Shown here: piece after piece, positions 7,827 to 60,101 of the stretch
Position numbering within the stretch: position 1 is the stretch's first letter
Layout: the number at the start of each line of letters is the position of its first letter
Source: Eledone cirrhosa
Lineage: Eukaryota
Length of the DNA: 64,000 nt
Assembly (NCBI GenBank): GCA_964016885.1
Contig: OZ024745.1
Location: 37,820,001 to 37,884,000 of the forward strand
Direction of reading: 5' to 3'
Translations under genes and position numbers: made by a program
The notes under the pieces: model-generated
The model's database searches: none
What the model saw: only the letters and a program-made list of their open reading frames with translations
Told to the model about the DNA's origin: nothing

Positions 7827-7912
<86 letters not shown>
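7827..7912. repeat. (TA)n microsatellite
   Basis: Pure AT dinucleotide run, one of many flanking the fold-back elements. Confidence 0.95.
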
Positions 7913-7917
<5 letters not shown>

Positions 7918-8077
7918 TTGGTGCTCTGAAATAGCGATATATATATGAATGTATATATAGTGTATTTTGCAATACACTGTATGCTTAATTAAAAGCATTT
8001 CGAAGACCATACGCTATTGTTTTAGAGTAGTGACAGTCTCACTTACTTTAAATTTTCAGCAAACAAGGGGGACATAA

Positions 8078-8122
8078 AGCTGACAGAGCTCTGTTTCGTA
8101 CTTTTTGGTACTTATCAAAGCC
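8078..8122 (-). ncRNA. hammerhead ribozyme, U3-A8 core variant
   Basis: ggct-TTGATAA-gtac caaaaa gtac-GAAA-cagagctctg-TC-agct: GUC cleavage triplet and palindromic stem III. Confidence 0.75.
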
Positions 8123-8572
8123 AAGTACTCCACCTGTTTGTTGAAAATCATGACTGTTTGATTCTTATAGAATTCTAGTAATAATCAGAAACTGATTATA
8201 CAGAGCGGTTACCGGTCAAGCAGAAATTGAAAAGTACCTAAAAGTACGAAACGGAACTCTGACAGCTTTATCTCCCCTTGTTGCTGAAAATTTAAAGTAA
8301 GTGAGACTGTCACTACTCTAAAACAATAGCGTAAAGTCTTCGAAATGTTTTTAATTAGCATACAGTGTATTGCAAAATACACTATATATATATATATATA
8401 TATATATTAGAATTGGTGCTCTGAAATAGCGATACATATATGAATGTATATATAATGTATTTTGCAATAGACTGTATGCTTAAGTAAAAGCATTTCGAAG
8501 ACCATACGCTATCGTTTTAGAGTACTGACAGTCTCACTTACTTTAAATTTTCAGCAAACAAGGGGGAGATAA

Positions 8573-8617
8573 AGCTGACAGAGCTCTGTTTCGTACTTTT
8601 TAGTACTTATCAAAGCC
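8573..8617 (-). ncRNA. hammerhead ribozyme, U3-A8 core variant
   Basis: ggct-TTGATAA-gtac taaaaa gtac-GAAA-cagagctctg-TC-agct. Confidence 0.75.
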
Positions 8618-8888
8618 AAGTACTCCACCTGTTTGTTGAAAGTCATGACTGTTTGATTCTTATAGAATTCTAGTAATAATCAGGAACTGATTATACAGAG
8701 CGGTTACCGGTCAAGCAGAAATTGAAAAGTACCAAAAAGTACGAAACAGAACTCTGACAGCTTTATCTCCCCTTGTTTGCTGAAAATTTAAAGTAAGTGA
8801 GACTGTCACTACTCTAAAACAATAGCGTAAGGTCTTCGAAATGTTTTTAATTAGCATACAGTGTATTGCAAAATACACTATATATACA

Positions 8889-8928
<40 letters not shown>

Positions 8929-9088
8929 TTGGTGCTCTGAAATAGCGATATATATATGAATGTATATATAGTGTATTTTGCAATAGACTGTATGCTTAAG
9001 TAAAAGCATTTCGAAGACCATACGCTATTGTTTTAGAGTAGTGACAGTCTAACTTACTTTAAATTTTCAGCAAACAAGGGGGAGATAA

Positions 9089-9133
9089 AGCTGACAGAGC
9101 TCTGTTTCGTACTTTTTGGTACTCATCAAAGCC
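9089..9133 (-). ncRNA. hammerhead ribozyme, U3/G8 core
   Basis: ggct-TTGATGA-gtac caaaaa gtac-GAAA-cagagctctg-TC-agct. Confidence 0.7.
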
Positions 9134-9389
9134 AAGTACTCCACCTGTTTGTTGAAAATCATGACTGTTTGATTCTTATAGAATTCTATTAATAATCAGG
9201 AACTGATTATACAGAGCAGAAATTGAAAAGTACCAAAAAGTACGAAACAGAGCTCTGTCAGCTTTATCTCCCCCTGTTTGCTGAAAATTTAAAGTAAGTG
9301 AGACTGTCACTACTCTAAAACAATAGCGTAAGGTCTTCGAAATGTTTTTAATTAGCATACAGTGTATTGCAAAATACACTATATATACA

Positions 9390-9477
<88 letters not shown>

Positions 9478-9546
9478 TATACATATACATATATATATGT
9501 GTATATATATTATATGTATATGTGTATATGTATATATAGATATATT

Positions 9547-9597
<51 letters not shown>

Positions 9598-12169: not shown

Positions 12170-12380
12170 CATATATTCATGAATGCATTATATTTATTAT
12201 ATTTATTTTCGTAAATGATTAAATATGTACTTATGGCAGATGTACTTTTATGATAAATGTCTATTAATATTTCGTGTTCATTTATTTCTTGTACATATTT
12301 ATATATTAATTACCACATATATATAGTACAACGGTAAAGCTATATTTATTTATATATCCGTTTTGATGAAAACTGTATTG

Positions 12381-13240
12381 ATAATAATTGTTTCTACTTT
12401 GGGCACAAGGCCAGCAATTACCCAGTACATTACTGGTACTTTATTTTATCGACCCCGTAAGGATGAAAGGCAAAGTTAACCTTCGGCGGGATTTGAACTC
12501 AGATCATAAAGAGCCGTAACTCTATGCATCAAAGGATGGCGTCCGAGCCTCTCCCGATACTGCCAATCCACCGCTCCATATTGATAATAATTGTTTCTAT
12601 ATTGATAATTGTTTCTACTTTTGGCACAAGGCCATCAATTACCCAGTACATTACTGGTACTTTATTTTATCGACCCCGTAAGGATGAAAGGCAAAGTTAA
12701 CCTCGGCGGGATTTGAACTCAGACTGTAAAGGGAGGACGTAACTATGCTGGAAAGCATGGCGTCCGACTCTACCGATACTGCCAATTCCACACTGTTTCT
12801 ATATTGATAATAATGGTTTCTTATATAGGCACAAGGCCAGCAATTGGGGGGGGGGGTCGACGAAGTTGACCCCAGTGCGTAACTGGTACTTTATTTTATC
12901 GACCCCGTAAGGATGAAAGGCAAAGTTAACCTCACGGGATTTGAACTCAGATCATAAAGGGCCGTAACTCTATGCGGCAAAGCATGGCGTCCGACCCTCT
13001 CCCGATACTGCCAATCCACCGCCCTATATTGATAATAATTGTTTCTATATTGATAATAATTGTTTCTACTTTTGGCACAAGGCCAGCAATTATCCTAGTG
13101 TATTAGTGGTACTTTATTTTATCGACCCCGTAAGGATGAAAGGCAAAGTTAACCTCGGCGGGATTTGAACTCAGACCATAAAGGGCCGTAACTCTTTGCT
13201 GCAAAGTATGGCGTCCGACCCTCTAACCATACTGCCAACA
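12381..13240 (-). mobile_element. tandem array of four tRNA-derived SINEs
   Basis: Copies at about 12381-12577, 12604-12792, 12808-13024 and 13051-13240, each with a B-box (gagttcaaatcc on minus) and the same body. Separated by tattgataataat duplications. Confidence 0.9.
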
Positions 13241-18589: not shown

Positions 18590-21500
18590 ATGAATACTGA
18601 TAATAAAAGCAATTCGACTTTATCAAACTGTGAACTACAGGGGCGACGGCGTGCAGCCAGGAATGAAGAAAAACTGGCTGAACAGCGCCATCGGAACGCC
18701 GAACTTCAGAGGCGAAGACGTGCCGCCATGAATGAAGAGGAGCTGGCTGAACAACGCCAACGAAACACTGGAGCCAAGCAGCGACGGCGTGCTGCGATGG
18801 TTGAAGACGAAATGGCTGAGCATCATCAGCAGATGGCCAGAATTCAGCAGCAACGGCGTACTACGGTGGATGAAGAGGAGCTGGCTGAACAGCACCAGCG
18901 CAATACAGAAGTCCAGAGAATGTGTCGCCAAAGTGCTCCTCATTCCAGTAAAGAGGCTAGAAGGTGAACGAATGATATTAAAAATGGATCATGGCAACCG
19001 TGTCATTTTCAGATTGGTGGACTAGCAGAGTGTCCATATTGTGGAGCGTTGCTTTGGAGGCACGAAAAGACGTGGACCACAATGTGCTGTCATAAAGGAG
19101 CAGTTCAACTAGAACCCTTGCGAATGCCGGATGATGAGGTGTCACCGGAGTTTAAAATACTAAGTATGTGGTGTGATCAAGGAGACCGGGGTAGATTACT
19201 GCGCAAATATTCGCGGCAAATTAACAATTCATTAGCTTTAGCATCGCAGAGAGTTAGTGAGATGTTTGAGAGTGGAGCATGGCAACCGAATGTAGTCATT
19301 CAAGGTCGTTTGTATCATTGTATCGGTAATTTAGAAGTTACCCCAGGAGAGAGGCCTTGATTCGCTCAAATTTACGTTAACGATCCAGATTATAGTGAAT
19401 CGGAGGAGGATATCAGGATCGGTTGGATGAAGTTGCCGGGAAATATAACTGAACTTGAACGGCAAAGGTTAAGTGATTTGATCCGTGATTTACAATCATG
19501 GCTTAGACAGTGTAATCCTTATGTTATGGATATCATGTTGGTGGCTGAACCGCAAAATCTTCAGCAGCAAACATTGGTGATTAAGGCTGACGCAGTGCCA
19601 AGGGATGAACACGAAGGGCGATATAATGCCCCTGAAGGATTTCGTGAAGTTGCTGTGCTTATGGACGATAAGCCTGGATCGAGAGATATCGTCCTTAATC
19701 GCAGAGATGGTGTTCTCAAGACTATCAATGAGTCAAATAGGGCATACGATCCATTGCATTATGTTCTTTTATTCCCAAAAGGTGAAAATGGATGGAACAT
19801 GTCTGTTCATTTAGATGATCATGAGAATCAGCATCAACAGGGAGGTGGCAATAGACACAATAATTCGATTCGCGACTTTTACGCGTTCCATTTGAACGAG
19901 AGGAATCAACAGAGAAATGCGCTATTTCAAGCCAGCAGATTGTTCCAGGAATACTATTGTATGGCATTCGCAAAGATCGAAAATCAAAGGCTAAATTATA
20001 TAGTTACACATCAGCAACATAGAGCTGAATTGTATAATATTATACAGGATGCGATAACAACCGATGATGCCAATTACAAGCAAATTGGTTGACGCATCAT
20101 TTTGCAATCGTCGTTCATCGGCGGCCCGAGATATATAAACATTCGCTATCAGGATGCAATGGCTATTGTCAGAAAGTTTGGAAAGCCAGATTTGTTTATA
20201 ACGGTTACATACAATCCTGAATGGACTGATATTAAGGATGCACTTTTGCCAGGACAACAGCCAAAGAACCGTCCTGATTGTGGCAAGAGTATTCAAAGGA
20301 TATCTGAAAAAGATAATGGATGATGTGGAAAAAGAGGGAATCTTTGGAGGTATAGTTGCTTTTACATACGTAATTGAATTCCAAAAAAGAGGATTGCCAC
20401 GTGCATATTTGCTGATCATTTTACATAGAGATTGAAAATTGAGATGTGCTGAGGATGTCGACAGCATTGTGTGTGCTGAACTGCTGGAGAATGAGGCACT
20501 ACTAAACTTTGTGGCAAAGTCAATGATGCACAACCAATGCGGAGTGGTAAATCGGAAAGCGCCTTGCATGAAAAATGGCCAATGCAGTAAGCACTTTCCG
20601 AAATCTTTTGTCACGAACACTACCTGGAACGATGGGGATGCTCATCTCTCATACAGAAGACGGTCGCCTGCCGATGGCGGTTTGGTCGAAAATGTAAACG
20701 GTCGACAGGTTACAAATCAATGGGTTGTGCCATACAATCCATATTTGGTTATGAAATATCGTTGTCATATTAATGTGGAAATTTGTAGCTCAGTGAAGGC
20801 TTGCAAATATCTATTCAAATATGTTTACAAAGGTCATGATCCGGCAATGATCAATGTCAGGAATGAGGAAGCGAACCAAGGAGATGAAGTTGGCAGGTTC
20901 TAGGATGTTCGCTCGATTGGATCTAGCGAAGTTTGCTGGAGATTGTTCGATTTTCATCTCAATGAACGCAAACCCAGCGTTCAGAAACTGCCGGTTCACT
21001 TAGAGAATAGGCAAATGGTCTGTTTTCAGGACACTAGAAGAGGTGTCGAAAGAATTGCTAACGCACCACCTCCTAAGACTGAATTGACTGAGTGGTTCAA
21101 GCATAATAGGTAACATGCTTTGAACCCGTATCAAAGGCAACTTTACTGCGATTTCCCTTCGCACTATACGTGGGATAAGAAGGGAAAGAAATGGAATGAT
21201 AGAAAACAAAAGTTGAGATTCATGATTAGTGGACGGGTTTGTAATGTCCATCCAGCATCTGGTGATGTGTTTTATCTCCGAATTCTGTTGAATAGTGATT
21301 TTTCGAGAGGTAAACAGAGCTTCGCTGATTTGAAAACAATCAATGGCGTGGAATATGAAATATACCAGGCTGTGTGTCAACATCTGGGACTCCTTCAGGA
21401 TGACGCTGAATGGAATAACGCCATGGAAGATGCAAGAACAACACAGATGCCAGCTCAAATAAGGCAGTTGTTTGTCACGATTCTAGGATCTGCAATCCTG

Positions 21501-23182
21501 CCGATCCAAGAGAGTTATTTGAACGCCATTGGGGAATTATGGCTGATGATTTTAGGCATCATCTTCAGGTCGATGATGACAATTTGATGAATGCTATTGT
21601 TTTGCTCAATATTGAGCAACTGTTTGAAGTTCATTTGAAATGTTTAACAGATTTCAATTTGCCAATTCCGGATGAAGAAATGCGGCAACGTGTCTTAGCA
21701 TTGAACATGAGATTGCAGCTTAGATGGTTGCCACTCGATCGGAGGGAACTATTCCAGTTTGATCCACTGGAACAGCAACGTATTGTGGATGAACGTATGC
21801 CAATGTTGACCCATTCTCAGAGAGAATTGGTCGATGGCGTTCTCCACTCGATTTCCACTAATGAGCAACTTTGTGCTTTCATAGATGCTCCAGGAGGCAC
21901 CGGAAAGACATTCTGTTTCAACACTATGTTATCGGCAGTCAGAGCTCAGAGGAAGATTGCTCTCCCTGTAGCCACCAGTGTGATTGCTGCCACTTTGCTG
22001 AGTGGTGGAAGGACCTTCCACTCATGCTTCAAGGCTCCATTGGCTCCGGATGAGTTGAGTGTCCGTAACATTACAGGACAAAGTGAACTCGCGGGAATTA
22101 TACGCAATACGTCTCTGATTATTTGGGACGAGGCTCCAATGGCACACAGATATTTGCTGGAGGCATTGGACAGAACTTTGAGAGATATCTGCGGTAGTGA
22201 CCTGCCATTCGGTGGTAAGACTATCGTTCTTGGTGGTGATTTCAGACAGGTGCTACCAATTGTTTGGAATGCTGAAAGAGCGCAAATTGTCGATGCATGT
22301 CTGAAAAAGTCCCCGTTGTGGCGCCATTTCAGAGTTTTGCGATTACACGATAATATGCGACTTCGTATGTTCGGGCAAAACGAAGAGGCTGAGACATACG
22401 GCCGATGGTTGATGCAGTTGGGAAACGATGAATTGCCACACGTTGGTGATAATTAGACTGTAAGTATCCCAGACCATTTGGTCATGCCACTGGACCGCCA
22501 AGCATTGATTGACTGGGTGTTCCCTAATTTGAATGCTTTTTGGCAGAATATCTCCTGGATATCGGAACGCGTTATTCTAACTCATACGAATGCAACGGTC
22601 GATGAAATAAATTCACAAGTAGCCGGAATGTTTCCTGGAGAGGAATGGTTGACCGTCAGTGCGGATGCAATGGAGCCTAATCAGCAGAACAATAGAGATG
22701 TTCCGACTCAGTATCTGAATTCACTTCAAATACCAGGATTTCCCCCACATATTTTGAGGTTGAAAAGGGGTATGCCGGTTATATTGCTTAGAAATATCAA
22801 TAAAAAAAATGGGTCTTTGTAATGGTACCAGATTGATTGTTGAGAGATTGATTAACGGAAGAGTTTTAGAAGTTAAACTCCCAGGCAGAGAGGAATCGGT
22901 TCTCATTCCGAGGATCATGCTGAGACCAAGTGAAGATCTGCTGCCATTCATTTGGCAAAGGAGACAGTTTTCCGTCAATTTGGCCTTCTTCATGACTGTC
23001 AACAAGGCACAGGGACAGACTTTCAAGCGAATCGGTGTCTACGTGAATGATCCAGCATTCAGTCATGGGCACTGTATGTTGCTGCATCTCGAGTGTGCGA
23101 TCCTGATGGTATAAAATTTGCAATTGATACCACTAACAGAGGAACAACCCTGAATATTGTCTATAATGAAGCTTTGAGCTGA
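18590..23182 (+). pseudogene. decayed Helitron Rep/PIF1-helicase gene
   Basis: Collinear ORF fragments: 23-aa repeats, CPYC..MCC Zn finger, YDPLHYVLLFP, Rep motifs KPDLFITVT / VIEFQKRGLPRAY (HUH mutated) / YLFKYVYKG, and helicase motifs DAPGGTGKT, IIWDEAPM, GGDFRQVLP, CNGTRL, TVNKAQGQT. Numerous stops and frameshifts. Confidence 0.95.
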
Positions 23183-28071: not shown

Positions 28072-29481
28072 CTGAAATTATAATAAAGAAAACAACAGCA
28101 TTGAGGAGCAAGATGACGATAATAATGTTGGTGAAAACAATGAGAGAAAAGTGATAGTGTGAGTAGGAGAACAAGAAAGACGGTCAGAAAAAAAGAGGAG
28201 AAAGATTACACTGGCCAACAAATATTTTGTTGACAGGCTTTTTTTGTTGTTTTTAGTTAATTTTGAGGTGCTGATATCAAATATGGTATCTATTTTTTCA
28301 TAACACATTAGGTTTTCATTCGATAGCACACCCCTATTTTATTATACACTGTATGATTTTGTTGACCAGTGTTATTGTTTATGATGTATGCCGAATGAAA
28401 AAAAAATAATTTTGCTTGATGCCCACTTAGGAATGTTTAAGTTAACGTCAAATTGTTAATTAAAATCATTATGCAGCGAGGAAAAGACAATATTAGCTTC
28501 ACGATTGAAATATAGGATGCATCTGTGGGTAGGAGAAGTATCAGTGGTAATAGCGATAGAAGAAAAATCAGTAACAGCGCAGCCGCAAATATTTGATAAG
28601 TCTTCTCGTGTGGATACAAATGGTGCTTTTTAGACAGAATGAAATAATTTGGAGACTTTAAGAAAAAGTTTAGGTTTTTGGAAATCAGTTTCGCAATGTT
28701 ATAGACTCAGTGCAATTACGTGGCTAAACACAGTGGAAGTCAATCGGATGGATTGTATCTGAAATTCAAATCTCCAGGTTTGTCACAAACTGTCACGCTA
28801 AAGCCGCCTGAGAATTATGTTACAGTTACACAGGTTTATTGAATACTCAGCCATTTATATGTTAATTGACAAATCAAATTTTCCATTAATGGAACAAATG
28901 AATGCTAATCCTCGAAACCAATGGAGACTCCAATATATTCAGAGCTGAAGTTGGAAGGAAAAGTTTTAAACTGTGGTAATTAGCATTTGGAGCATATATA
29001 TGTTTTCCTTCATTGCATAGGCAGTATTATTTAAAGTTCATTTTCCATGCTGGCATGAGTTGACCACATTGTGACCGACCAATACTTGACTGGTTGGAGA
29101 GACCACATCTTTCACGCACGCTCTCTTACTTTAGAATAGTTTCTACGGCTGCATGACTTCCTAACGCCAGCCAATTTACACAGACGAATCTGTGGCTAAA
29201 CAAAACTTGATATTTCCTTAAACAAGATAGGGACAGGAACAGCCAATAAGCCGTGGAACACGTGAAAGCAATTTCAATATTTTTGTTCACAAATGTAATA
29301 TTAATGGATTTACATTTGCTTACGTCTTTGTAGTGGGTTATGTAATTTAAGCTGCTGACATTCCTACATTAGATTTATATCAAAACAACAGAAAAGGTTA
29401 AAGGAAAATATTTGAAGCAGATATAAAAAAAAAACATGAAACGAAGAAATATAAAGAAATTATACAAAACAATAGACTTAC

Positions 29482-30320
29482 CTGTCAGAGCCACGGTTTT
29501 TACAGTTATTATAGGAACCCAACACATAAAGTCAGTAAGGACGATAAGAGAGAACCGCTTCATAATAAGATGATCATGATTTTCACGATTTGTTCGGAGA
29601 GACATGGCAGACTTACGGATGTTGCAAAACATGACGAAATAGGCATAGCAGATGAATATAAAAGCCAACACAGTTATACCAAGATATAGAAATGCCGAGT
29701 ACTCCCACCCTTTGATGAAAGGTTCATGTATGTGCAAAGGAAGACACACAGCGTTATTCCGATAGAAATGTTCACCGAAATAAGGTATGTCAAGAACTGG
29801 CAGTACGGCAATAAGAAAATTAGCAAGCCACATGGAAATTATTAAGAAATATGCTGTTTTTCGCCCACATTTGTGTAATGAAAATGGATAGACGACATTT
29901 ATGTATCGATCTAATGTAATGAGAACAACAGTAAAAACAGACATTTCAGTGCTAACTGTTGAGATCACGCCGCAGCTGTTGCAAAGCCATGAATATCTCC
30001 ATTGTTGATCATTCGATAAATATTTCCCACGATAATACATGTCTTTTGAAGCGACAGTCAATAAATAAACACCCATCAGCATATCAGCCAAAGCCAAGTT
30101 TTGTATGTAAAAAGAGTGGACTTTGTTGTCTTCGTTAATGCAAAAACGTCCAAGTAAGACGAGACAGTTTCCCAACACACCGACTATACCGATCACCCAC
30201 ACACCAACACGTAACACTGGGTTTTCAATAAGATTCTTTGTACTGGATAATCCATCGCCTTTTGGATTACACACTCGTACGTGCAAAGCGTAAATACAAG
30301 TGTAAAACACAGTGAAATGT
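29482..30320 (-). CDS. hinge plus TM1-TM6 exon of RXFP1/2- or Lgr3/4-like relaxin-family receptor
   Basis: Lies within ORF 29375-30409. Motifs: hinge CIYALHVRVCNPKGDGLSS, GNCLVL, NLALADMLMG, ITLDRY, CLPLHIHEPF..GWEYSAF, TDFMCWVPI. Acceptor ttttcag at 30321-30322, donor gtaagt at 29481. Confidence 0.95.
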
Positions 30321-30340
30321 CTGAAAATAATAATAATAAT

Positions 30341-30391
<51 letters not shown>

Positions 30392-30392
<1 letters not shown>

Positions 30393-30600
30393 CTTTCTTT
30401 ATTAACCACAAGGGTTTATACAAAGTAGACATTAAGGACAGTACAGGACAATACAGGACGGAACAAATGGACATTTCTGCGTGTAAAAAAAAGAAAAAAA
30501 AAGAGGATGTAATAAAAGAACAATGAAAAATTCCCCAATAGGGGGGAGACTTCGGAGGGCCATCGTGGAGAAAGCCCATTAAAAAAAGCCACGGTGACCC
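30392..30600 (-). mobile_element. 5'-truncated Tx1-type LINE (3' UTR only)
   Basis: Close match to 33272-33490, ending in the (TTA)n tract at 30326-30391. Confidence 0.9.
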
Positions 30601-33534: not shown

Positions 33535-36500
33535 TTACAGATATATACTCAGAGTCGGCCCATTCACTCGGGCCATTCTTGCTTCTCTCACCCATCTTTC
33601 AACAAAATGCTGGGAAGAGAGCACTTCCTTCTCTACTCTGATTTTCCTTTTCAAATGAAATTTGAAAAAGTCAATCAGAGCATCACCGAAGAGGTAAGTG
33701 CTCGTCTTCAGCCCTTTCAAACGTGTCCACCATACTATCTCTTTCGCCATGGCCACCAGACAGATAAAAACTGCCTGCCCTTCCCGGCTAAAGGAGGAGG
33801 GCGGGGCAATCCTCACGATAGACTCAGATGATAGCTGGATCCGTCCTAAACGCGACAGCAGGTGTTCGACATAAACCCACAAGTCAGCAATTTTCGGACA
33901 CTGGACGAGTGCGTGCAGGACGGTTTCGTCGCCCTGCGCGCATCTCGGACATGCCCGGCTGACGGCACCTCCATGCCTGTAGAGTTTATCCCGAACTGGC
34001 AAGGCTCCTCGGTAGCACTGCCAGGCCAGAGATTTCTGGAAGTTGTCCATAGGCCCTGGCCCGAAGGTTCTTCCGAAGAGATTGGCTAGTTGATTTTCGT
34101 CGACGCCTAGAGTTTCCCCAAGTACGTCGTCGCTCTTCCCCTCCACTAATCCTCTATAGAACGCCGAGGTGGAGTTTCCACCGATCACATTGCCCGATTG
34201 GTCGAGGGCTGTGAGCGCCTGAAGACATTCCAGTCTCCAGGCGCTCCCTCTCGGTCTTCGCTTGACCCAGGACTGCAGCTCCGTCAAGGAAACGAGCTGG
34301 GGAAAAACGCGTCTAGCAAACGGCGACCACACCTGATCACCGTCGAGGAAGAGGTGGAGATGTCGTAGCCTGAGCGCGTGCCTGCGCATCATCAGCCACG
34401 GCATGCCCAGCCCTCCACGTAGCGGGTGTTGACAACAGATGGACCGCCTGACCATCGGAGCACGTCCCTTCCACAAAAAGCGAAAGAGCAAACGCTCCAG
34501 CGCAGTCAGGCGAGGCTTAGGACAAGGTACGACGGTTAGGCGGTAGCAGATGACAGACGCGATGTACGCGTTAGCCACCTCCGCTCGACCTTTCAGGGAT
34601 AGCTTCCTCTCCGCCCATTTCTGGGTGAGAGAAGCCACCCTGCTCGTCACCTCGTCCCAGTTTTTGTCCGTCTGGAGGTCCGGACCGAACCAGACCCCTA
34701 GCAATTTAACCGGTCCGTCCGTCCAGCGCCCGACGACGCTGTTGGACGGCATGGACCTGCCTCTCCAGGTGCCGAGCTGCAGGCCCACTGACTTTTCCTG
34801 GTTGATCATTGCTCCTGTCACCGCTTCGTATTCTCTTAGTGTAGTGCCGATCGCCTCGATGTGTTTGGCGTTCGACACCACTACGGTGACATCGTCCGCA
34901 TATGCTGACACGGATCTTCCGCATCCTAGTTCGCGCGGGACTCCCCTCAACGTCTCCAGTTTGTGCAGTAATGGCTCGAGAGTCAATACGTACAAGAGGG
35001 ACGAGAGGGGACATCCTTGGCGGACCGAGCGCATGATGTTGAACGGTTCCGACAGGTGACCGTTCACTCTCACCACAGAGCAGATGTCGCTGTGCATGGC
35101 AGCGATCCAGCCTCTGAAGACGGGCCCAAAGCCAGCCGCCCTCAGGACTGCCGCTAGGTAACGATGGTCGACCCTATCGAAAGCTTTCGACTGATCTAAA
35201 TTGATCAAGGACCCACCCGTGCCAGGTTCCCTAGCTACCCTCTCTACGATGTATCGCATGAGGTGGAGGTTGTCGTGGATGGATCTGTCGGGAATGGCGC
35301 ATGTCTGCGCCTCTCCCACCAGACCACCAACGACAAGCGCCAACCTCTTTGCTAGCACCTTGGCCAAAATCTTAAACTCTGTGTTTAGCAGAGTTATGGG
35401 CCGGAAATTGTCTATGTTATCCCCCTTGTTCGGATCCTTTCTCAGCAGTGCCACCGCTCCTCGGCTCACAGAACTGGGAATTCTCCCGTTCTGTTGCCAG
35501 TTGCAGTAGACGTCCGCCAAGAGGCCTCCGAACAAGTCTGGCATCTGTACGTAAAGTTCATAGGGCAGACCATCCAAACCAGGCGATTTACCCCTTGTGC
35601 AGCCAGTCATTGCCTCCCTTACTTCAGCGGCTGTTATCGGCTTTTCGCAACACTTCGCCTCAGTGGCCGAGAGCCGCGGCAGTCCGTCGAGGTAGACACT
35701 AAAGTCCATCCCTCTACCCGGCCCCCCGCTGCCCCCGAACAGCTGAGCGAAGTGTCGCTGAAAAGCTTCACACATTTGCCCGGGATCGAGTAGCATGCGC
35801 CCGTCGTGGTCCACCAAAGACCGGATCGTGGCTTTGTTGCCACGACGCGCCTCCGCCACTCGGGCCCATTGAACGGCTTTCGTCCCCTCGTGTCTGAGAG
35901 CACGCACCCTAGCTCTGACAACGCAGCCTTCGTGCTTTGCATTGAAGAATTGGTCAAGGGCCAATTTCGCCGCAAGCACGTCGGTCGCAATGCCTTTGCT
36001 AAGCGCCTCGTCTAATTTTCTAACTAGTTCTCCCTCTGCTCTATTTTTCTCTATTGCTAAAGCCTTACTAAACCTAATCGATTCTATTCTAATCGCTCTT
36101 TTCAGAGCAAACCACCACTTGTTGTTGACGATGGCCCCCGTCAACGCCCGCTTAACTAGTTCGCTAATCCGGTCTCTGTAGGCCTTGCGCGCTGGTAAGG
36201 ACGCGTTTAGCTTCCAGTAGCCGGGTCCTCGTCTATGAAGCCTATCTAAGTCAAGCACACAGATCACGAATTTGTGGTCCGTGTAGCTGACTATCTTGAA
36301 TTGTGGACAGCCTATGCTAGACCTATCTATTTCCCTACAAAATACTCTATCTAGATATGATCTGGATGACCCTATGCGGTTTGTCCAAGTCCACATTGGC
36401 ACATTCGGGAAATCCAATCGGTACCTGTCAGACAGTTCAAAACGCCTGAGCAGGTTGGTGAGGCTCTTGCACCCTCCACCCCTATCCGCTAATCCCACAC

Positions 36501-36954
36501 AGTCCCAGCGTGCATCTAAGATCCCGTTCCAGTCGCCCACTAACACTAAAGAGCGCGACGTTCCAAGAAAGGTCTCCAGACGCCGGAAGAAATCAGGCCG
36601 CCCTGCTCCTGTCGGGGCATAGACGGCCACTAGCCTGAAAGCTTGCCCGTCTCCGCTGGTCACGTCCAGCACCACCAGCTTACCCTCTGGGTCCAGGAAG
36701 ATGGCCCGTATGGCGAGATCCAAACCTCTCCGAAAAAGCACAGCAACTCCTCCACCCGATCCAGGACGGCTGGGAGATGCGTACACATCGTAGCCGCCGA
36801 AGATCGGTGCGAAGGCCCGTGCTTCGGAGATTCTGGTCTCGCTGATGGCCACTACATCTATGTTTAGTGACCTGAGGTCGTTGAGCAGGTGACCCTGCTT
36901 CCATGACGACCCCAAGCCACGCGCATTTATGCTGCCTATTCTGAGTGAGGTCAT
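33535..36954 (-). CDS. LINE ORF2: AP endonuclease, reverse transcriptase and C-terminal zinc finger
   Basis: 1139-aa uninterrupted ORF. APE motifs SINARGL, SETR, VYAP, GDWN, LDRVF, TDH; RT motifs KSPGLDG, FRPITLLN, DQSKAFDRV, QGCPLS, YADD; zinc finger CPRC..ETVLHALVQC. Confidence 0.97.
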   Translation of the reverse strand: MTSLRIGSINARGLGSSWKQGHLLNDLRSLNIDVVAISETRISEARAFAPIFGGYDVYASPSRPGSGGGVAVLFRRGLDLAIRAIFLDPEGKLVVLDVTSGDGQAFRLVAVYAPTGAGRPDFFRRLETFLGTSRSLVLVGDWNGILDARWDCVGLADRGGGCKSLTNLLRRFELSDRYRLDFPNVPMWTWTNRIGSSRSYLDRVFCREIDRSSIGCPQFKIVSYTDHKFVICVLDLDRLHRRGPGYWKLNASLPARKAYRDRISELVKRALTGAIVNNKWWFALKRAIRIESIRFSKALAIEKNRAEGELVRKLDEALSKGIATDVLAAKLALDQFFNAKHEGCVVRARVRALRHEGTKAVQWARVAEARRGNKATIRSLVDHDGRMLLDPGQMCEAFQRHFAQLFGGSGGPGRGMDFSVYLDGLPRLSATEAKCCEKPITAAEVREAMTGCTRGKSPGLDGLPYELYVQMPDLFGGLLADVYCNWQQNGRIPSSVSRGAVALLRKDPNKGDNIDNFRPITLLNTEFKILAKVLAKRLALVVGGLVGEAQTCAIPDRSIHDNLHLMRYIVERVAREPGTGGSLINLDQSKAFDRVDHRYLAAVLRAAGFGPVFRGWIAAMHSDICSVVRVNGHLSEPFNIMRSVRQGCPLSSLLYVLTLEPLLHKLETLRGVPRELGCGRSVSAYADDVTVVVSNAKHIEAIGTTLREYEAVTGAMINQEKSVGLQLGTWRGRSMPSNSVVGRWTDGPVKLLGVWFGPDLQTDKNWDEVTSRVASLTQKWAERKLSLKGRAEVANAYIASVICYRLTVVPCPKPRLTALERLLFRFLWKGRAPMVRRSICCQHPLRGGLGMPWLMMRRHALRLRHLHLFLDGDQVWSPFARRVFPQLVSLTELQSWVKRRPRGSAWRLECLQALTALDQSGNVIGGNSTSAFYRGLVEGKSDDVLGETLGVDENQLANLFGRTFGPGPMDNFQKSLAWQCYRGALPVRDKLYRHGGAVSRACPRCAQGDETVLHALVQCPKIADLWVYVEHLLSRLGRIQLSSESIVRIAPPSSFSREGQAVFICLVAMAKEIVWWTRLKGLKTSTYLFGDALIDFFKFHLKRKIRVEKEVLSSQHFVERWVREARMARVNGPTLSIYL

Positions 36955-36989
36955 GTTTAAAATAGAGTGGAAAAGATGGGAAAGACCAC

Positions 36990-39089
36990 TTACCGTATTT
37001 TTGGTAGAGGAGGGATGGTTTTTACATCCCTTTTCACTTGATCGTCTGGTGAAGGGACCGTTGAATCGTCCCTTCGGCTGGTCGTCGGCTCTTCTAAGAG
37101 AATGTCTGAATATACTCTTCGATTAATGGTTCCTCCTAGGTCCCTGAAATCACCAACTGCGTTGGGGAATTTCGTTTTAATGTTTGTGTATTGTTTCTGT
37201 GCTATTTTTAGCAGTCTTATGTTAGTTGGCGTTTTGATTGGTGCTGGTATTATGTAGTCCTGTTGTGAAATGTCTGTGTGTTCAATTATGTAAGTCATTA
37301 GTTTCTTGTTGTGTGTGTTTATTGCCGTGCATTTGTTTTTCTGGGGGTGGGGTGTGGTTCTGCTATTTTCTTGTCGTTGTTGCTGGGTGTGTGTGTTTTG
37401 TTGTTGTGTTTGCGATGTTGGTGCTTGTGGTGGTGGTGTTGAAGGTGTTGTTGGCGGTGGGGTTGTCGCCGGTGGTGATGGTGGTGCTGGTGTGGGTGGT
37501 GATGGTGTTGGTGGTGTTGCTGCTGTGGGTCTCTTTGCAGTAGACTTTACCCTTTTCTCATTTCTTTCCTCCCTTTTCAAAGGCGACGATGCGCTGCTTC
37601 TGCGTTTGTGCCTTCTTGAGACCTTTTGCCATCCCTCTCCCACCTCACACTCCATGTCTGATTCTGTAAGGTCGGGGAGGGGTACCAGCTCCACTCTTTC
37701 ACTTGTTGTTGTTGGTGATGTTTGCACTGGAGTCTCTGTTGCAGCTGCATTTGGTATTGCTGTTGTTGTTGTTAATATTTCCACTGCTGCTGCTGTCTTT
37801 GATTTCCGTGGAGTGGGTATGGGTGCCACGGACCTATCGTTCCTGGTTGCCGCTTGTCCTGTTGCTGGTAGCCGTGGAACCGGATTCGGGAGGAGGGGGG
37901 TTTTCTCCTTTCTCAGGGTCTTCTCGTTGCAGAAGGCCCTGAGGTGAGTCTTCGATCCACAGCGAAAGCATTTCGGGCGTTTGCCCTCAACACTTATGGG
38001 CAGTTGAGTGCCGTTATCGAAGTCTATCACATCCGGGATAGCTTCGATGCACTCCTGGTTGGTTTGGATTAGCATCTCAATGGAGGAGCCGACCCAATCT
38101 TCTCTTACTTTTTTCTGTACTTGCAGTACAGTTGTTTTGTCCTCGATTCCGACGAGGACAGACGCGGCCAGCCAAGAAGGGGTCATTCCGGGGGGGACGT
38201 GGGTCAGTTTGACCCTCACAATTTTTTGCCCGCAGTAGGAGGGCACCAACACCATTTCCTCGCTCCTTAGGGTCACTACTGATTGGGCCTTTGCCTCCTG
38301 GGGTGTGGCAAAAAGTACGTCTACGGTGGCGTATTTTTTGCCTCGGGTGATGTGCGTTTTCCTCTGCCACACAGACCCCAAGGCTTTTTGTATTTGGGCC
38401 TCTGTGGCTCTTTCCACCCTACGGGATTTTGTACTTACTGTACGGTACGTGACCGTACAGTGCTCTTGGGTTTCGAAAAAATTTTTCGCTGCCTTGCAGA
38501 TTGCTCGGTGTCCGTTCTTTGTCACCATCTTCTTCGCTTCCTCTAATTCCTCATTTGTTATGAGGATTGTTTCCAGGTTTTTCGCAATACCTGCAAATGA
38601 GATTGGTTTTTCTCTGCTGTTGTTGTTGTCGTCAGAGCTGCTGGTACTTTTGTTGTTGCTGCAGGTACTACGACTACTGCCTCCGCCGCTGTTGCTGTGG
38701 TTGTTGTTGGTGTTGCTGCTGCTAATGCTGTTGTTGTTTATGCTGCTGGTGATGCTGTTGCGGCTGCTACTGTTGTTTTCATTGTCACTGTTGCTGTTGT
38801 TATTACGGCTGCTACTGCTATTATTCCTGACGTCAGACGAATGAACTGGGTTTTCGTATTTCCCGCACACCTGTTTCGTCGCTGTCGTCGTCGTCGTGGA
38901 GAAACCTTGCACGCTTTGCACGAGACTTTTCTTTTCTTTCGTCGCTTGCGAAAGAGAAGGTAGGGAGAGAGACACATTTAAAGAAGGGAGGGAGAGAGAC
39001 AATCTTCTCTCTCCTGTAGTGATGATTGAGGAAGAAGAAGACGGAATGAGTGGGAGTGACGTATGAAATTTTTTTTTTTTGGTAGCCAT
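36990..39089 (-). CDS. LINE ORF1 (gag-like nucleic-acid-binding protein)
   Basis: About 700 aa open frame from the ATG at 39089. S/N-rich N-terminus, CCHC knuckle CFRCGSKTHLRAFC, and a P/T-rich linker with basic KVSRRHKRR. Confidence 0.9.
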   Translation of the reverse strand: MATKKKKFHTSLPLIPSSSSSIITTGERRLSLSLPSLNVSLSLPSLSQATKEKKSLVQSVQGFSTTTTTATKQVCGKYENPVHSSDVRNNSSSSRNNNSNSDNENNSSSRNSITSSINNNSISSSNTNNNHSNSGGGSSRSTCSNNKSTSSSDDNNNSREKPISFAGIAKNLETILITNEELEEAKKMVTKNGHRAICKAAKNFFETQEHCTVTYRTVSTKSRRVERATEAQIQKALGSVWQRKTHITRGKKYATVDVLFATPQEAKAQSVVTLRSEEMVLVPSYCGQKIVRVKLTHVPPGMTPSWLAASVLVGIEDKTTVLQVQKKVREDWVGSSIEMLIQTNQECIEAIPDVIDFDNGTQLPISVEGKRPKCFRCGSKTHLRAFCNEKTLRKEKTPLLPNPVPRLPATGQAATRNDRSVAPIPTPRKSKTAAAVEILTTTTAIPNAAATETPVQTSPTTTSERVELVPLPDLTESDMECEVGEGWQKVSRRHKRRSSASSPLKREERNEKRVKSTAKRPTAATPPTPSPPTPAPPSPPATTPPPTTPSTPPPQAPTSQTQQQNTHTQQQRQENSRTTPHPQKNKCTAINTHNKKLMTYIIEHTDISQQDYIIPAPIKTPTNIRLLKIAQKQYTNIKTKFPNAVGDFRDLGGTINRRVYSDILLEEPTTSRRDDSTVPSPDDQVKRDVKTIPPLPKIR

Positions 39090-39354
39090 GTTTTTTTGTT
39101 TAAAATGAAATTTTGGGTACAAAACCCCAATAACTGGTTATTTAACCCCGAAGGGCCAAATAACGGACAGAAAGACCCCTCTCACGAGGAGGAGGGTGTC
39201 TTTATCAACAATTTGGTTCAAGTTTTAAGCAATTTACAATTGTTTTAACGGTTAAAAATTACTATACCTTACAGAGCCGAGCCTCCGTCAACCATGGCAT
39301 TCAATAATAATAATAATAATAATAAGAATATTAAGAAGAAGAATATTTTCTTCA

Positions 39355-54699: not shown

Positions 54700-55385
54700 T
54701 AGGAGTGTCAATCCAGTTACAGATCAGATGCGATTTCAGATGAGGACAGCATCTGAAGATCTCAGTCTTTGAGTTAAGGCAAGCGGAAGTGGCTCTCAAT
54801 TTAGCAAAATCCTATACTTTTCTGTGGTACACAAAGAACAATTTTTTGTGCCCCTTTGGTACTCCCTCGAATGGTCTAATATAGACCAATCAATAGAGTA
54901 CGGGATGTTACTATCCTTGAGTTCCCACACCTTACTTGTGAGGGCCGTTGATGTTCGTTTATCGGAGTGCTTAAAAGAAGCGACATGTGAGTAAAATCTG
55001 GTTTTAAACTTGTCCTGGGTCATACCGACATATCGCTCACTCCTGGCTGGCTGGTTGTTGATTACCGGTGTTATCTTAGCCTCATAAACGACAGATTTGG
55101 TGTTACATTTACCCTGCAATGGGCATTCATCCGGCTTCCTGCAACTGCATCCTGGATTTATTCTCGTACGGTTTGAACTGGTAATTTTGGACTTCATAGA
55201 TGGGCAACAAGAGTAGCTGATCTTAACTACGTTCCTATTAAATATCTTATAATATCTATGATTAGGAGGAAAATGTTTGTTTAATAGTTCAAGGAATTTC
55301 CTTCCTACATTAGTTTTGACAGTTAGAGAGAAGAGGGGTGTGAACCAAATAATCTTCCTTTTCCTGTTATTGTGGTTAGTTTTAG
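54700..55385 (-). mobile_element. 5'-truncated Penelope-like element (GIY-YIG endonuclease)
   Basis: ORF 54796-55197: CSCRKPDECPLQGKC, VVYEAKI..YVGMT, FKTRFYSH, CSLCTTEK. Confidence 0.92.
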
Positions 55386-55503
55386 GGGGGGGGGGAGTAG
55401 GTAAATATATATATATATATATACATATATACGTATGTAAGGTTCATATGTCCCAAGGCTTTGATACCACCAACACAGAGCTGGCATATCTAAGAACTGA
55501 CTA

Positions 55504-55617: not shown

Positions 55618-58600
55618 ATTTATTAAAATAACAGATTCAAGTTTAAGCAAATAATCGCTGCTTTCCCCCTTAACGGGATCTTCTGAAATACATACAAGCC
55701 ACTATATACGTACATACACAAGCATACGCGAAAACACTCGCGATAGGTATACAAATACACGCACGTACACACAAAAAACCCCCCAAAAATCCATACGCAC
55801 ATACAGAACCCACTCAACGCCTGTACCCGCATGCATACGAATGTATACACCTAACACACACATCATTATATATAAAAATATATATATATTAATACATATA
55901 TATGTGTGCGTGTGTGCGTGTATACATATAATTAAATAAACGTATATAAATACATAAATACGTATATAACTAGCGCTCACACACATACCTACATGCAAAT
56001 ACACATATGTTCGGAGACGTACGTCAACCAAAATACGAAGTACACATATACACACACCCTACATACGTACGAACCCGTATACTCACACAGACGCAAAACA
56101 CACGTATACACATAACCAAAAGCATATGTACCAGAATATATAATATATACGCCATAACACATACAATCATATATACATACGAGGAAGTATACGTACCTTC
56201 ATAAAACATACATTTAATATATACTTACCTATACAAATAAGTAATGGTATAAACATAACATATACTTAGCTACCACATCAAGCCGTAAAATATCCGCGTA
56301 TAGTTCGTACTATCCGTTAGGGTATAATTTGGTGCTGTAATACAGGAAAGTGTTCTGCAATTTATGTTTACAAGCCGAAATTGCCTCAGATTTTTTGTTT
56401 AAGATGTGGTCTTTGGCGTAGAGTATTTCCAGGGCCTCAGCCGCGCAAAGGTCACATGGTCTTTTATTTCCATTATACGATCTAGCCCTAGCTAGGATCT
56501 CCCAGTGTAACTTATATTGGGTGTTTTTGTCTTTTAGACTCCAGATATAAGATGAAAGTGACGTCATATTCCTTCTTAAAGGGTAACGAAAAGAATGGGT
56601 ATGCTTGTAAAGACGCTGCTTGAATCTATTGGCAGTTAACCCTATGTAGGCCCTACGGGACGTGGGTGTTTCAACCTTACATTTGTAGACAATGTTACTA
56701 GAGAGGCATTTCCCGGATAGGGGGCAGTCAACCCGATTCCTACAATTATAGTTAGTACTAACTACAGGGTTGCACGTTTTCCTACGGCTAGGTAGTTTAG
56801 CTAAATTTGAAGCTGTGATGTTATGTGCAAGGTTAGGAGTCGTTGAGTAAGACACGTTGAGTAAGACATTTTAATAGTATTTCTATAATAGTATTTCTAT
56901 AATAGTATTTCTATAATAGTATTTCTATAATAGTATTTCTATTTTACTATATTTATGTGTATGGGGAAAATGCACCATAGTAAGGGAGAGAAAGATCTTA
57001 GCTAATGGTGTGGCCACCTCCATATTATATGGTGGGTTATACCATATAATGCGTCGGGATCTATTTCTTCTAGGTGTATTCTCGTACTCTGTATATGCTA
57101 CCTTATCGACAAATCCACTTCGAGCAAGAGCTTCATTGTAATATGTGTAAATAGTCGTTGAAAATATGCTTGTTAGTAGATAGACGGGAAAGCCTCAAAT
57201 AAACGTTTCTTACCAGGTTCTTGGTTATGCTGGCAGGGTGGTTAGAACGCTTACTTATGTAATTAAGCGTATCATTTGGCTTTCTATACGGGTAATGAAA
57301 GCCATTCAATAAATTGAGGGTAACGTCGAGGTAATTAACGACCGAGAGGTTGGCCTCAACCTGTATGGAGAGGTTGAAGCCTTTAAAGAAGGCTGTGAGT
57401 TCTTTTCTGAACCTGTCGCAAGCACGTGGGTCGCACTTAGTCATGGTCAAAAGACCATCATCACGGTACAAACCACCGCCCACGTTGGGGAATTCTTCCT
57501 TGATAGAGAAAAGAAGGAAAAGGCCGATAAGATCAGTAACCTCCGCAGAATTGCTGGCGCCCATACTCACGTCGAATGGGGTACTATTGGAATTTTTAAT
57601 CCAAATAGAGTCGTCGAAATTAATCACCGACTTACGGGCATTGAGGATGACATCAACTTCGAAATCCTTAACCACTGTGAGTGTTTTAGCGAAATTGATA
57701 ACTCTAAGGAGAAGTGATAAAGTCATTGAGGAGTAATAATTATTGATGTCGAATTGGATAAAACGGCAATGTTCCTTGTTGCATATGCCGTTGAAGCAAT
57801 CAATCACCGCGAACGAATTGTTCCACAGTACAAGAGGAGCCAAACTTCTAATTTCAGGTATAATTCCATCAAGAATCATTTTACTAAGTCTACCTAAATC
57901 GGACTCCGTAGGGTTAATAAGCCGAATAGAAGGGTTGTTCGGAAAATTGGATTTGTGATCCTTCAGGGTAAAATTGGGAGAAATAGGGTCCAGAGGTTCA
58001 GTCCGGTCCAGGATATTGTGATCAGAGGTGATTTTAAACCCAGCATCGTTGATTTCATTTATGACGCCCCGATTAGTTTTACGGTAATCCTTAGTTACAG
58101 CATTATGTAGCAGTTGATGGTAAGTACTGCGCTCCACTTGATATAGATTGCCAGTTTTGCCGGAATGGACGTGCACGGCATTAGAATCCTTAATAGAACG
58201 AATTCTATTTTTCAGGTCCTGCTGGAAGGAATAGCTCCTATTTCGAAATTTGATACTCCGTATGAGTTTCAAGACATCATTTTCGAAGGGTAGCAATGCT
58301 GGGTTACTCGGAGGGTTACTATAGGTTTTAAATCCAAATTTATCCTGTTTGTTGTCTGCTTTTCCCTGATTATCGAAATAAAAGGCACGCCAACGCAACC
58401 TTTTAATGAACGCGTCTGTTTTCTGTATCAGGAGTTTTAGGTATGTTTTCCTGCTTGGTACGGATATGTTCTTTGTAGAAATATTCAGATGTTGGTTTTG
58501 CATGATGAATATAAGTCAATAGAGTGCTCAACCGAGGGAGCCAAATAGTAATAATAATAAATTTGAAGACTAAAATCCAAAGAGGGCTCGATAAGGATAA

Positions 58601-58900
58601 ATATATATCAAATATATATGAACCGTAGAGCAAATATTTATTAAAATAACAGATTCAAGTTTAAGCAAAGAATCGCTGCTTTCACCCTTAACGGGATCTT
58701 CTGAAACTAACAAAGTCAATCTGTGAACGCAGTGGCAAAGCATGGCCTCACTGGGAACGGCAGCGTCTTAAATGTAAAAGGCAACTCGCTATCACTTGGT
58801 ATAAGTGGAGTATTTGCTCTACGGTTCATATATATTTGATATATATTTATCCTTATCGAGCCCTCTTTGGATTTAAGTCTTCAATTTTATTATTATTACT
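55618..58900 (-). mobile_element. near full-length, disrupted Penelope-like element
   Basis: RT ORF 57133-58503 (FDINNYY, SMGA, YRDD) and GIY-YIG ORF 56310-56855 (IVYKC..YIGLT, CDLC). About 70-bp direct repeat at 55618-55688 and 58636-58706, and 5' inverted arms at 58545-58636 and 58812-58900. (TA)n flanks. Confidence 0.93.
56873..56942. repeat. 14-bp minisatellite x5 inside the Penelope ORF
   Basis: aatagtatttctat repeated five times. Confidence 0.9.
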
Positions 58901-60101
58901 ATATATATATATAAATCAGTGATATAGTTTATGGAGAAAATCTCTGCATTTCAATATTACTCAATGTAAAATGTAATGCATGAAAAATTGGAAAACATTA
59001 TTTTTTGTAATATATCAAATCAAAATTATATTATTAAATCTTATTCTTATTTTATTCCTTGTAAAAACTTTTTTTCAAAATATCAATTCAAAACTTGATT
59101 ATTTCATTTTTGTGTAAAGCATTATTTTCAAATTAGAAATTGAAAGTTTAATTATTTATTTTTTAACATAATAAATACATGAAAATAAATTTCATACTTT
59201 GTCCTAATGAAGAATTTCAGTGTAAACAACATTTCTTGTCTTTCTTGATTTTTTGAAGTTCCAGTCCTTGAAATAGCCATGTCCTTAAAACATGCCATGA
59301 CTGAAACATGGGTTTGTCAGATCTATACTAATAGTTTTGAAAATTTGACCTTGACCTTTGTTGATGCTCATGGCAAAGCTGGGAACGGCAGCCTCTTAAA
59401 TGTAAAAAGCAACTCGCTATCACTTGGTATAAGTGGAGTCCTTGAAATGAGAAGAGCTTGACCTTTGTAAACCCCGAATATAATGGTTGCTTCAATCAAG
59501 TTCTCATGCAATCTTGTTACAGTACATCTTGTTCCATTTATTGGCCAACATTTTCACTATGGGAGGTTTAACCCCCATTAGGGTGTCTTAATATTATTGA
59601 AATTTGCTGAGATTTTGTGAATAGGTATCATATGTACCTATGTTTTAAATTTCATATAAATCAAAGGGAAAACATTTTCAGCGGGGTTTGTGCCCCCGAG
59701 GAACCCTTTGATTAAAATGAAATATACTGGGAAATGTAGTTTCAGAATATATATGGTTATGTGGTTCTATCTCCAAAACCATTGGAGGAGTTCGTGAACA
59801 AACAAACAGAGAGGAACTACAAATTTATATATATATATATATGGAAAAAGTGAAATTACATTTCTCACACTTAGTACGGCTGATCTAGAAACTAGTTCAT
59901 CGTTCCTTTGTCAGTGTTGAAATAGGACAGCGATGGTTACAGAACACTGTATGGCTAATAAATCGGGCTGTTTGTTTACAAACCGAGCATTATAATAAAT
60001 GTTCGGTAAACCCATACGTACATATATATATGTGTGCATGTATGTATATACATACTACTGTACGTCTGTATACATATATGTATGTACGTATACATACTTA
60101 C

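Follow-up and report, generated by a model that had tools for sequence, protein, structure and literature searches.

A ~320-nt retrozyme inserted as two head-to-head arms in a (TA)n tract of Eledone cirrhosa, very probably by Penelope-like machinery, and likely triplicated locally

Layout of the locus

We analyzed a window of 64,000 nt from Eledone cirrhosa (assembly GCA_964016885.1, contig OZ024745.1, positions 37,820,001-37,884,000 of the forward strand). The coordinates given below refer to this whole stretch of DNA, and statements on published work refer to the available portions of the cited texts.

Three repeated units, with (TA)n between them as an earlier note on this sequence had claimed, begin at 7912, 8407 and 8923. 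Each of them forms a long hairpin in the predicted fold (81-86% paired, −272 to −295 kcal/mol), in agreement with the fold-back described there. The units had been regarded as head-to-tail monomers; the three repeated copies are real, but none of them is a simple monomer. Each ~500-nt unit is itself a head-to-head pair of arms, composed of one whole monomer and an inverted, 5′-truncated second arm. At this locus, the long arm comprises monomer positions 1-322 and the short arm positions 26-207. The following features were distinguished:

7827..7912, no strand: (TA)n target tract on the left side of the insertion
7912..8233, minus strand: long arm of unit 1, a whole ~320-nt monomer with its sense on the minus strand and its 3′ end at 7912
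7912..7936, likewise 8407-8431 and 8923-8947, minus strand: 25-nt tail of Penelope type, present in the long arms only (for the concept, see PMC8557442 and PMC11167929)
8055..8145, minus strand: full type I hammerhead of unit 1, U3-A8 core at 8112-8118, predicted cut after 8082
8227..8233, likewise 8722-8728 and 9223-9229, plus strand: arm-to-arm joint with 6/7-nt microhomology, mimicking a plus-strand core
8227..8405, plus strand: short inverted arm of unit 1, lacking the tail and covering monomer positions 207 to 26, with hammerhead stem II at one end and the internal TA tract at the other
8407..8728, minus strand: long arm of unit 2, with two private changes common to the long arm of unit 3
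8550..8640, minus strand: type I hammerhead of unit 2, core at 8607-8613, predicted cut after 8577
8722..8901, plus strand: short inverted arm of unit 2, with two private changes (one of them GUC to GAC) common to the short arm of unit 1
8923..9229, minus strand: long arm of unit 3, shortened by a 15-nt deletion private to it
9066..9156, minus strand: type I hammerhead of unit 3, core UUGAUGA (U3-G8, a private change), predicted cut after 9093
9223..9402, plus strand: short inverted arm of unit 3
9380..9597, no strand: (TA)n target tract on the right side; the inner tracts lie at 8383-8407 and 8879-8923

The units contain no ORF of at least 150 aa, a TA-repeat frame that overlaps unit 3 being the one exception. 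The element also contains no ORF with the RT and GIY-YIG domains, and is therefore not an autonomous Penelope-like element (PLE). With one hammerhead per monomer, it is the non-coding, hammerhead-bearing element of retrozyme type that the earlier note had recognized.

Several other features lie elsewhere in the window. A 221-bp unit, which we presume to resemble a SINE common in octopus genomes, is repeated in tandem about four times at 12376-13238. These repeats are followed by a fragmented Helitron (19361-22456, plus strand; PIF1 helicase and a weak Helitron_like_N match), a large exon of a rhodopsin-family GPCR (29375-30415, minus strand; 7tm_1, E 2.8e-25) and a nearly intact LINE (33535-39137, minus strand). 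The LINE has an APE-RT-zf ORF2 of 1195 aa and, upstream of it, an ORF1-like frame whose start recurs at another locus (L131).

The ~320-nt monomer and its predicted hammerhead ribozyme

The 3.0-Gb assembly to which the window belongs was searched with one ~500-nt unit as the query, which yielded 3057 candidates, of which 40 were scored. Many matches covered only positions 1-325 of the query and recurred every ~320 nt. Decomposition of the loci with 8407-8728 as a monomer ruler revealed tandem monomers of ~320 nt (GC content 34%), each with one full type I hammerhead, and with cut-to-cut distances of 320, 320, 320, 320, 311, 321 and 321 nt. The core pattern had 918 exact matches genome-wide and none in the reversed control, and the hammerhead core is therefore not a product of chance. 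The corresponding number was 499 for another subfamily, in which the stem III palindrome is different.

For each of the two subfamilies, spacing was determined in the first 100 matches listed, for neighbours less than 1 kb apart. Among these listed matches, same-strand neighbours were 317-323 nt apart in 15 of 15 pairs and head-to-head pairs (n = 28) were 53-649 nt apart, while tail-to-tail pairs numbered zero. Spacings of 495 or 516 nt were absent among the listed neighbours, and the ~500-nt rod put forward as the monomer is not supported, the period of the family being 317-323 nt. The multimers expected elsewhere in the genome were indeed found, in the form of dispersed and tandem monomers of ~320 nt, whereas exact matches to the joint of the ~500-nt unit are confined to this window. 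Dispersed and tandem copies of the monomer are present at hundreds of loci. Separate DNA contigs (loose ends, from one sample) run from 8233 and 8728 into the start of a monomer and not into the inverted arm. Additional divergent members of the retrozyme superfamily, with other hammerhead stems, are located at L004:2900-3230 and L090:3533-3699.

Minus-strand hammerheads are present in the units at the places originally claimed, but the motif is longer than described and includes an extended stem I (8055-8145, 8550-8640 and 9066-9156). This stem runs through an internal loop into a distal helix of 13 bp, a part of the motif that presumably resembles the hammerhead motif of Schistosoma. The predicted cut sites (C17) at 8082, 8577 and 9093, with gaps of 495 and 516 nt, and the stem III palindrome (CAGAGCTCTG) are as previously reported. 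On the minus strand, the cores read UUGAUAA at 8112-8118 and 8607-8613, and UUGAUGA at 9123-9129. UUGAUAA was found in an intact stem context in 58 of 78 aligned motifs, and the strict full motif was intact in 33 of the 78. Matches combining a canonical core with the same stem II numbered two, versus 918 for the U3-A8 form, which indicates that U3-A8 cores escape canonical hammerhead searches.

In 20 sequences representing several subfamilies, 96.5% of the cells were paired (39-46% in slid controls). Eight of the 28 pairs, distributed over stems I, II and III, were changed on both sides, although eight pairs were also reached by 36 of 500 shuffles, and a small number of subfamily-level events, each counted repeatedly, underlies the changes. 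Rfam HH9 matched all three minus-strand motifs at 18.9-24.2 bits, below the gathering score of 52, and no Rfam hammerhead family was found in the units at or above its gathering score. Matches to Rfam miRNA families were discarded, as they lay far below the thresholds and were due to the long hairpin and the TA repeats.

The folding z-score was −6.2 for a near-majority copy, and −3.0 and −3.7 for copies from the window. For the isolated motif, the predicted minimum-energy structure is an alternative fold ~3 kcal/mol below the hammerhead, which would be in keeping with dimer- or protein-assisted cleavage. Of nine Xenopus retrozyme dimers reported, one was cleaved (bioRxiv 10.64898/2026.07.22.740005).

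A second core had been described on the plus strand. The sequence TTGAAAA-GTAC..GTAC-GAAA does occur at 8227, 8722 and 9223, with GUC replaced by GAC in units 1 and 2, and its stem I is broken, as had been stated, the 5′ strand of this stem being absent. These look-alikes folded no better than shuffled sequences (z 0.20 and −1.45). They lie at the point where the long arm ends with TTGAAAA, in the place of TTGATAA of the hammerhead, and passes into stem II of the inverted arm. The exact joint has three matches in the genome, all inside this window; at L010 the joint lies close by but is not identical. Judged by these features, the plus-strand "core" is a microhomology joint between the arms and not an antisense ribozyme, and the claim of cores in both polarities could not be upheld.

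The consequences of the fold-back for the real ribozyme were considered in predicted structures. Forcing the hammerhead inside a unit costs 46-57 kcal/mol, compared with 2.7-3.8 kcal/mol without the inverted arm, and on the minus strand the blocking short arm is transcribed first. The fold-back is thus predicted to lock the ribozyme in a duplex. Since a ~180-bp hairpin in the unit transcript would silence the ribozyme, the locus is most likely a dead end and not a source of circles. The natural circular monomer is predicted to be branched (59% paired), at variance with the viroid-like rod of the earlier note.

It is extremely improbable that the ~500-nt fold-back replicates as a viroid-like rod, with cores in both polarities and with circularising monomers of 495/516 nt. 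The units do fold into long rods and their cut sites have this spacing, but such a replicon is contradicted by the confinement of the joint to this window, the lack of the corresponding period among the listed neighbours, the missing stem I of the plus-strand core together with the loss of GUC in two copies, and the predicted cost of folding the ribozyme once the blocking arm has been made. Moreover, the units have arm-specific mutations in common, which is typical of DNA duplication. PLE-type inverted insertions can evidently mimic two-polarity viroid-like rods in genome scans.

These mutations were defined by comparison with the family majority. Four substitutions and one insertion are common to all three long arms, and two changes outside the joint are common to all three short arms. 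In unit 2, the long arm agrees with that of unit 3 in two further changes, and the short arm agrees with that of unit 1 in two others. Because the units share arm-specific mutations and unit 2 appears to be a recombinant of units 3 and 1, we infer that one insertion was expanded locally. Most likely, an aged insertion was duplicated via its TA flanks, and unequal crossing-over produced the middle unit. The earlier note had read the trimer as a replicon array, and had named a unit multimeric at this locus alone, through local duplication, as the finding that would speak against it; the trimer reads as just such a local duplication.

Alternatively, the units might have entered a single (TA)n tract by three separate insertions, or the array might be an artefact of assembly. 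TA tracts are hot spots, relatives of the element sit in TA tracts beside PLEs (L119, L124), and no contig spans the array (contigs of one sample). However, the same rare joint is present in all three units, while joints vary elsewhere, and the long arms and the short arms carry the common changes listed above. The private changes and the recombinant pattern are unlike those of a collapsed or duplicated contig. Both possibilities are therefore considered very unlikely.

Insertion footprint and the template of the arms

Among 54 other loci (a set of which half came from the fold-back query), 40 were inverted, i.e. they consisted of two opposed arms with 3′ ends directed outward, mostly into (TA)n; in the half obtained with the monomer query, which includes two pairs resembling segmental duplicates, 13 of 27 loci were inverted. 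Of the 40 inverted loci, 32 combined an end at positions 1-3 of the monomer with a second end at positions 24-41, and the remaining eight lacked this standard end pair. The one-armed loci (n = 14) had a fixed 3′ end (12 at the tail and two at position 26) and ragged 5′ ends. Central joints differed from locus to locus. In no fewer than eight loci (L006, L007, L014, L017, L020, L021, L023 and L028) each arm held sequence absent from the other, which indicates that the arms were templated independently and that neither is simply a copy of the other; a fold-back generated by self-copying was rejected for this reason. At most loci the fixed ends adjoin (TA)n, which reflects microsatellite-biased insertion.

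A TA-targeting MITE, or a fold-back DNA transposon with TIRs of ~180 bp and a hammerhead present by chance, would likewise have long inverted repeats with TA flanks. We give this explanation almost no credence, as arm lengths and central joints vary by locus, the two ends are offset by 25 nt, numerous copies have a single arm and a ragged 5′ end, the arms are tandem multimers, and a genome search for exact matches revealed no fixed-length fold-back family with this joint outside the window.

The footprint corresponds to that of PLEs, whose layout is an inverted, 5′-truncated copy with a tail at one end only (PMC8557442). Targeting of (TA)n has been described for Hydra and Naiad PLEs (PMC8557442). 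In experiments in vitro, both DNA strands were cut and extended by a PLE protein, the tail corresponded to the interval separating two RT start sites, and insertion did not depend on the hammerhead of Poseidon PAc (PMC11167929). Penelope-like mobilisation, which the earlier note had thought probable, is thus supported by the inverted 5′-truncated arm and one-sided tail at the 32 standard loci.

Two abundant autonomous RT+GIY-YIG families have fragments in this window and intact frames of 713/714 aa elsewhere, and both show the same two-ended, TA-targeted layout. Their ends are 88-89 nt apart in one family and ~68 nt apart in the other (family 2; 10 of 10 pairs). On the motifs of PMC8557442 (RWK/RWR, DKT, CxCX5C), both appear to be Hydra-like; Pfam gave no name for their proteins. 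The first family is represented by a broken copy at 56310-58515 (minus strand; RWR, CxCX5C) with an inverted 5′ arm at ~58820-58915 inserted into (TA)n. DKT is present in its intact copies, such as L093, the 713-aa frames belong to this family, and its hammerhead-like motif is CAGAAGA, compared with CUGANGA. The second, very young family has left an endonuclease fragment at 54796-55443 (minus strand); it has 714-aa frames, arms that are more than 99.5% identical, a canonical pLTR hammerhead and a tail of ~68 nt.

No autonomous partner of the element was found, both tested families differing from it in tail length (~88 and ~68 nt vs 25 nt). Comparison of the monomer with these two local families, out of tens of thousands of PLE candidates, revealed no similarity above that of shuffles. 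A retrozyme relative beside the PLE at L090 is absent beside other copies of that PLE family and was assigned to a neighbouring insertion. A GAGCAC word common to the ends is too short to count.

The 21-nt tail motif has 21,050 exact matches in the genome. Many of these belong to a 310-312-nt sister family with a canonical CUGAUGA core, which has the tail module in common (~76% identity). A DNA search with the 310-nt monomer of this family as the query gave no candidates, probably owing to the skipping of very common words. Its complete two-armed loci (10 of 10) end at ruler positions 309-310 and 285, i.e. at the tail end and 25 nt earlier, and its arms reach ~10 monomers. Long head-to-head arrays of identical monomers with a CGCG stem III represent this young family at C1:1240013-1244419 (L162), C1:15433925-15438539 (L165), L119 and L124.

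Within an arm, monomers of the sister family differ by 0-1 changes at seven multi-monomer loci and by three at L168. Opposite arms are identical at six of six loci, and these loci differ from one another by 1-4 changes, with the exception of one identical pair. In the family of the window, loop II is common to opposite arms in 9 of 11 pairs (permutation p 0.0014). Since all monomers of the two arms are fixed for variants specific to their locus, each insertion should have passed through a bottleneck of a single monomer, with the same template for the two arms; the sequences point to one RNA template, which was likely circular. Rolling reverse transcription of a circle has been proposed for retrozymes (PMC7229834, PMC7761336). 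A counter-example is L062, where the two arms come from different subfamilies, and either two templates or nested insertions would account for it. The stretch L062:808-1664 contains a 279-nt deletion variant with a CAAGGCCTTG stem III, opposed to a C3-G8 variant.

A possible though rather doubtful alternative is that PLE twin priming took place on linear multimers, or on two RNAs, and not on one circle, with homogenisation at the DNA level afterwards. It would accommodate L062; furthermore, PAc takes unprocessed linear RNA in vitro (PMC11167929), and source arrays of identical monomers would also yield identical daughters. On the other hand, variants fixed in all monomers of both arms at 6/6 young loci would still require a single-monomer bottleneck, and the length of the arms (~10 monomers) is a further argument against a linear template.

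We consider it very probable that the locus arose from one insertion of a ~320-nt retrozyme, in which two PLE-written head-to-head arms were placed in (TA)n, and that this insertion was expanded to three units locally. The process may be pictured as follows: (i) transcripts of tandem copies would cleave themselves, probably in dimers formed through the palindromic stem III, and the resulting monomers would circularise; (ii) a PLE RT-endonuclease would nick both strands of (TA)n, as the footprint suggests; (iii) cDNA synthesis would start at two fixed RNA sites 25 nt apart, namely the tail end and an internal UA tract; (iv) the lengths copied would vary, and the 3′ ends of the two cDNAs would be linked, in many cases at short microhomologies (here at one of 6 of 7 nt), to give a fold-back with a single tail; and (v) the aged insertion would be duplicated through its TA flanks, a crossover between copies giving rise to the hybrid middle unit, as the variants in common suggest.

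On balance we also lean towards a broader reading, in which a superfamily with different hammerheads carries one 25-nt tail module, and a PLE primes both (TA)n strands on one circle and rolls from both sites. If this is true, the rolling-circle, target-primed step that has been proposed for animal retrozymes would gain evidence from genome sequence, and its start sites would be defined to the nucleotide. Copying of the circle by a LINE or PLE enzyme during integration of animal retrozymes has been proposed, but not shown, in the available text of the literature searched. As the footprint names two start sites and a target, it lends itself directly to an assay with a PLE and a circle. The insertion studied here has decayed and been triplicated locally, and the family behind it matters more.

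Comparison with known systems

By features open to testing, the element belongs to the non-LTR retrozymes and does not qualify as a two-polarity viroid-like element. The likeness to hammerhead viroids and viroid-like circular RNAs with ribozymes in both polarities is limited to a superficial rod fold: the second core of the element stems from an inverted and truncated copy of its one ribozyme, and its true monomer is predicted to fold into a branched structure instead.

The element resembles the non-LTR retrozymes (PMC7229834; bioRxiv 10.64898/2026.07.22.740005) in having (i) non-coding tandem monomers of 150-450 bp (here ~320), (ii) a GC content below 50% (here 34%), (iii) one type I hammerhead per monomer, and (iv) dispersed copies ranging from monomers to multimers, with PLEs co-occurring. 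Judged by the lack of long ORFs, the dispersed core matches and the ragged 5′ ends, its organization does not appear to be of the LTR/PBS/PPT type. It differs from them, as described in the available text, in its U3-A8 core and 10-nt palindromic stem III, and in its strict (TA)n targeting, two-armed insertions and one-sided tail of 25 nt. Co-occurrence and pLTR homology have served as arguments for a link between retrozymes and PLEs (bioRxiv 10.64898/2026.07.22.740005); here, no pLTR homology to an autonomous PLE was found in the two local families compared. The available main text of the literature searched, including PMC7229834 and bioRxiv 10.64898/2026.07.22.740005, contains no mention that we could find of a tail-plus-inversion footprint for retrozymes.

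With the EN+ PLEs (Hydra clade, PMC8557442; Poseidon PAc, PMC11167929) the element has in common the inverted 5′-truncated copy, partial tandems, the tail at one end, microsatellite targeting, a hammerhead upstream of the 3′ ends, and two RT starts. In contrast to them, it has no ORF, its tail is 25 nt long (30-40 bp in PMC8557442 and PMC11167929), and its hammerhead is full, with a long stem I, whereas that of the PLEs is minimal. In Poseidon PAc the RT start is not homologous to the cut DNA (PMC11167929), whereas here one of the starts is a UA tract matching the target.

The U3-A8 swap is known from the hammerheads of Schistosoma PLEs (PMC4209133), a paper that also reports dual hammerheads on opposite strands, 100-700 bp apart. 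The Cercyon PLEs of Schistosoma thus have the same compensated core swap as the element described here, in minimal hammerheads there and in a full-length type I hammerhead in E. cirrhosa.
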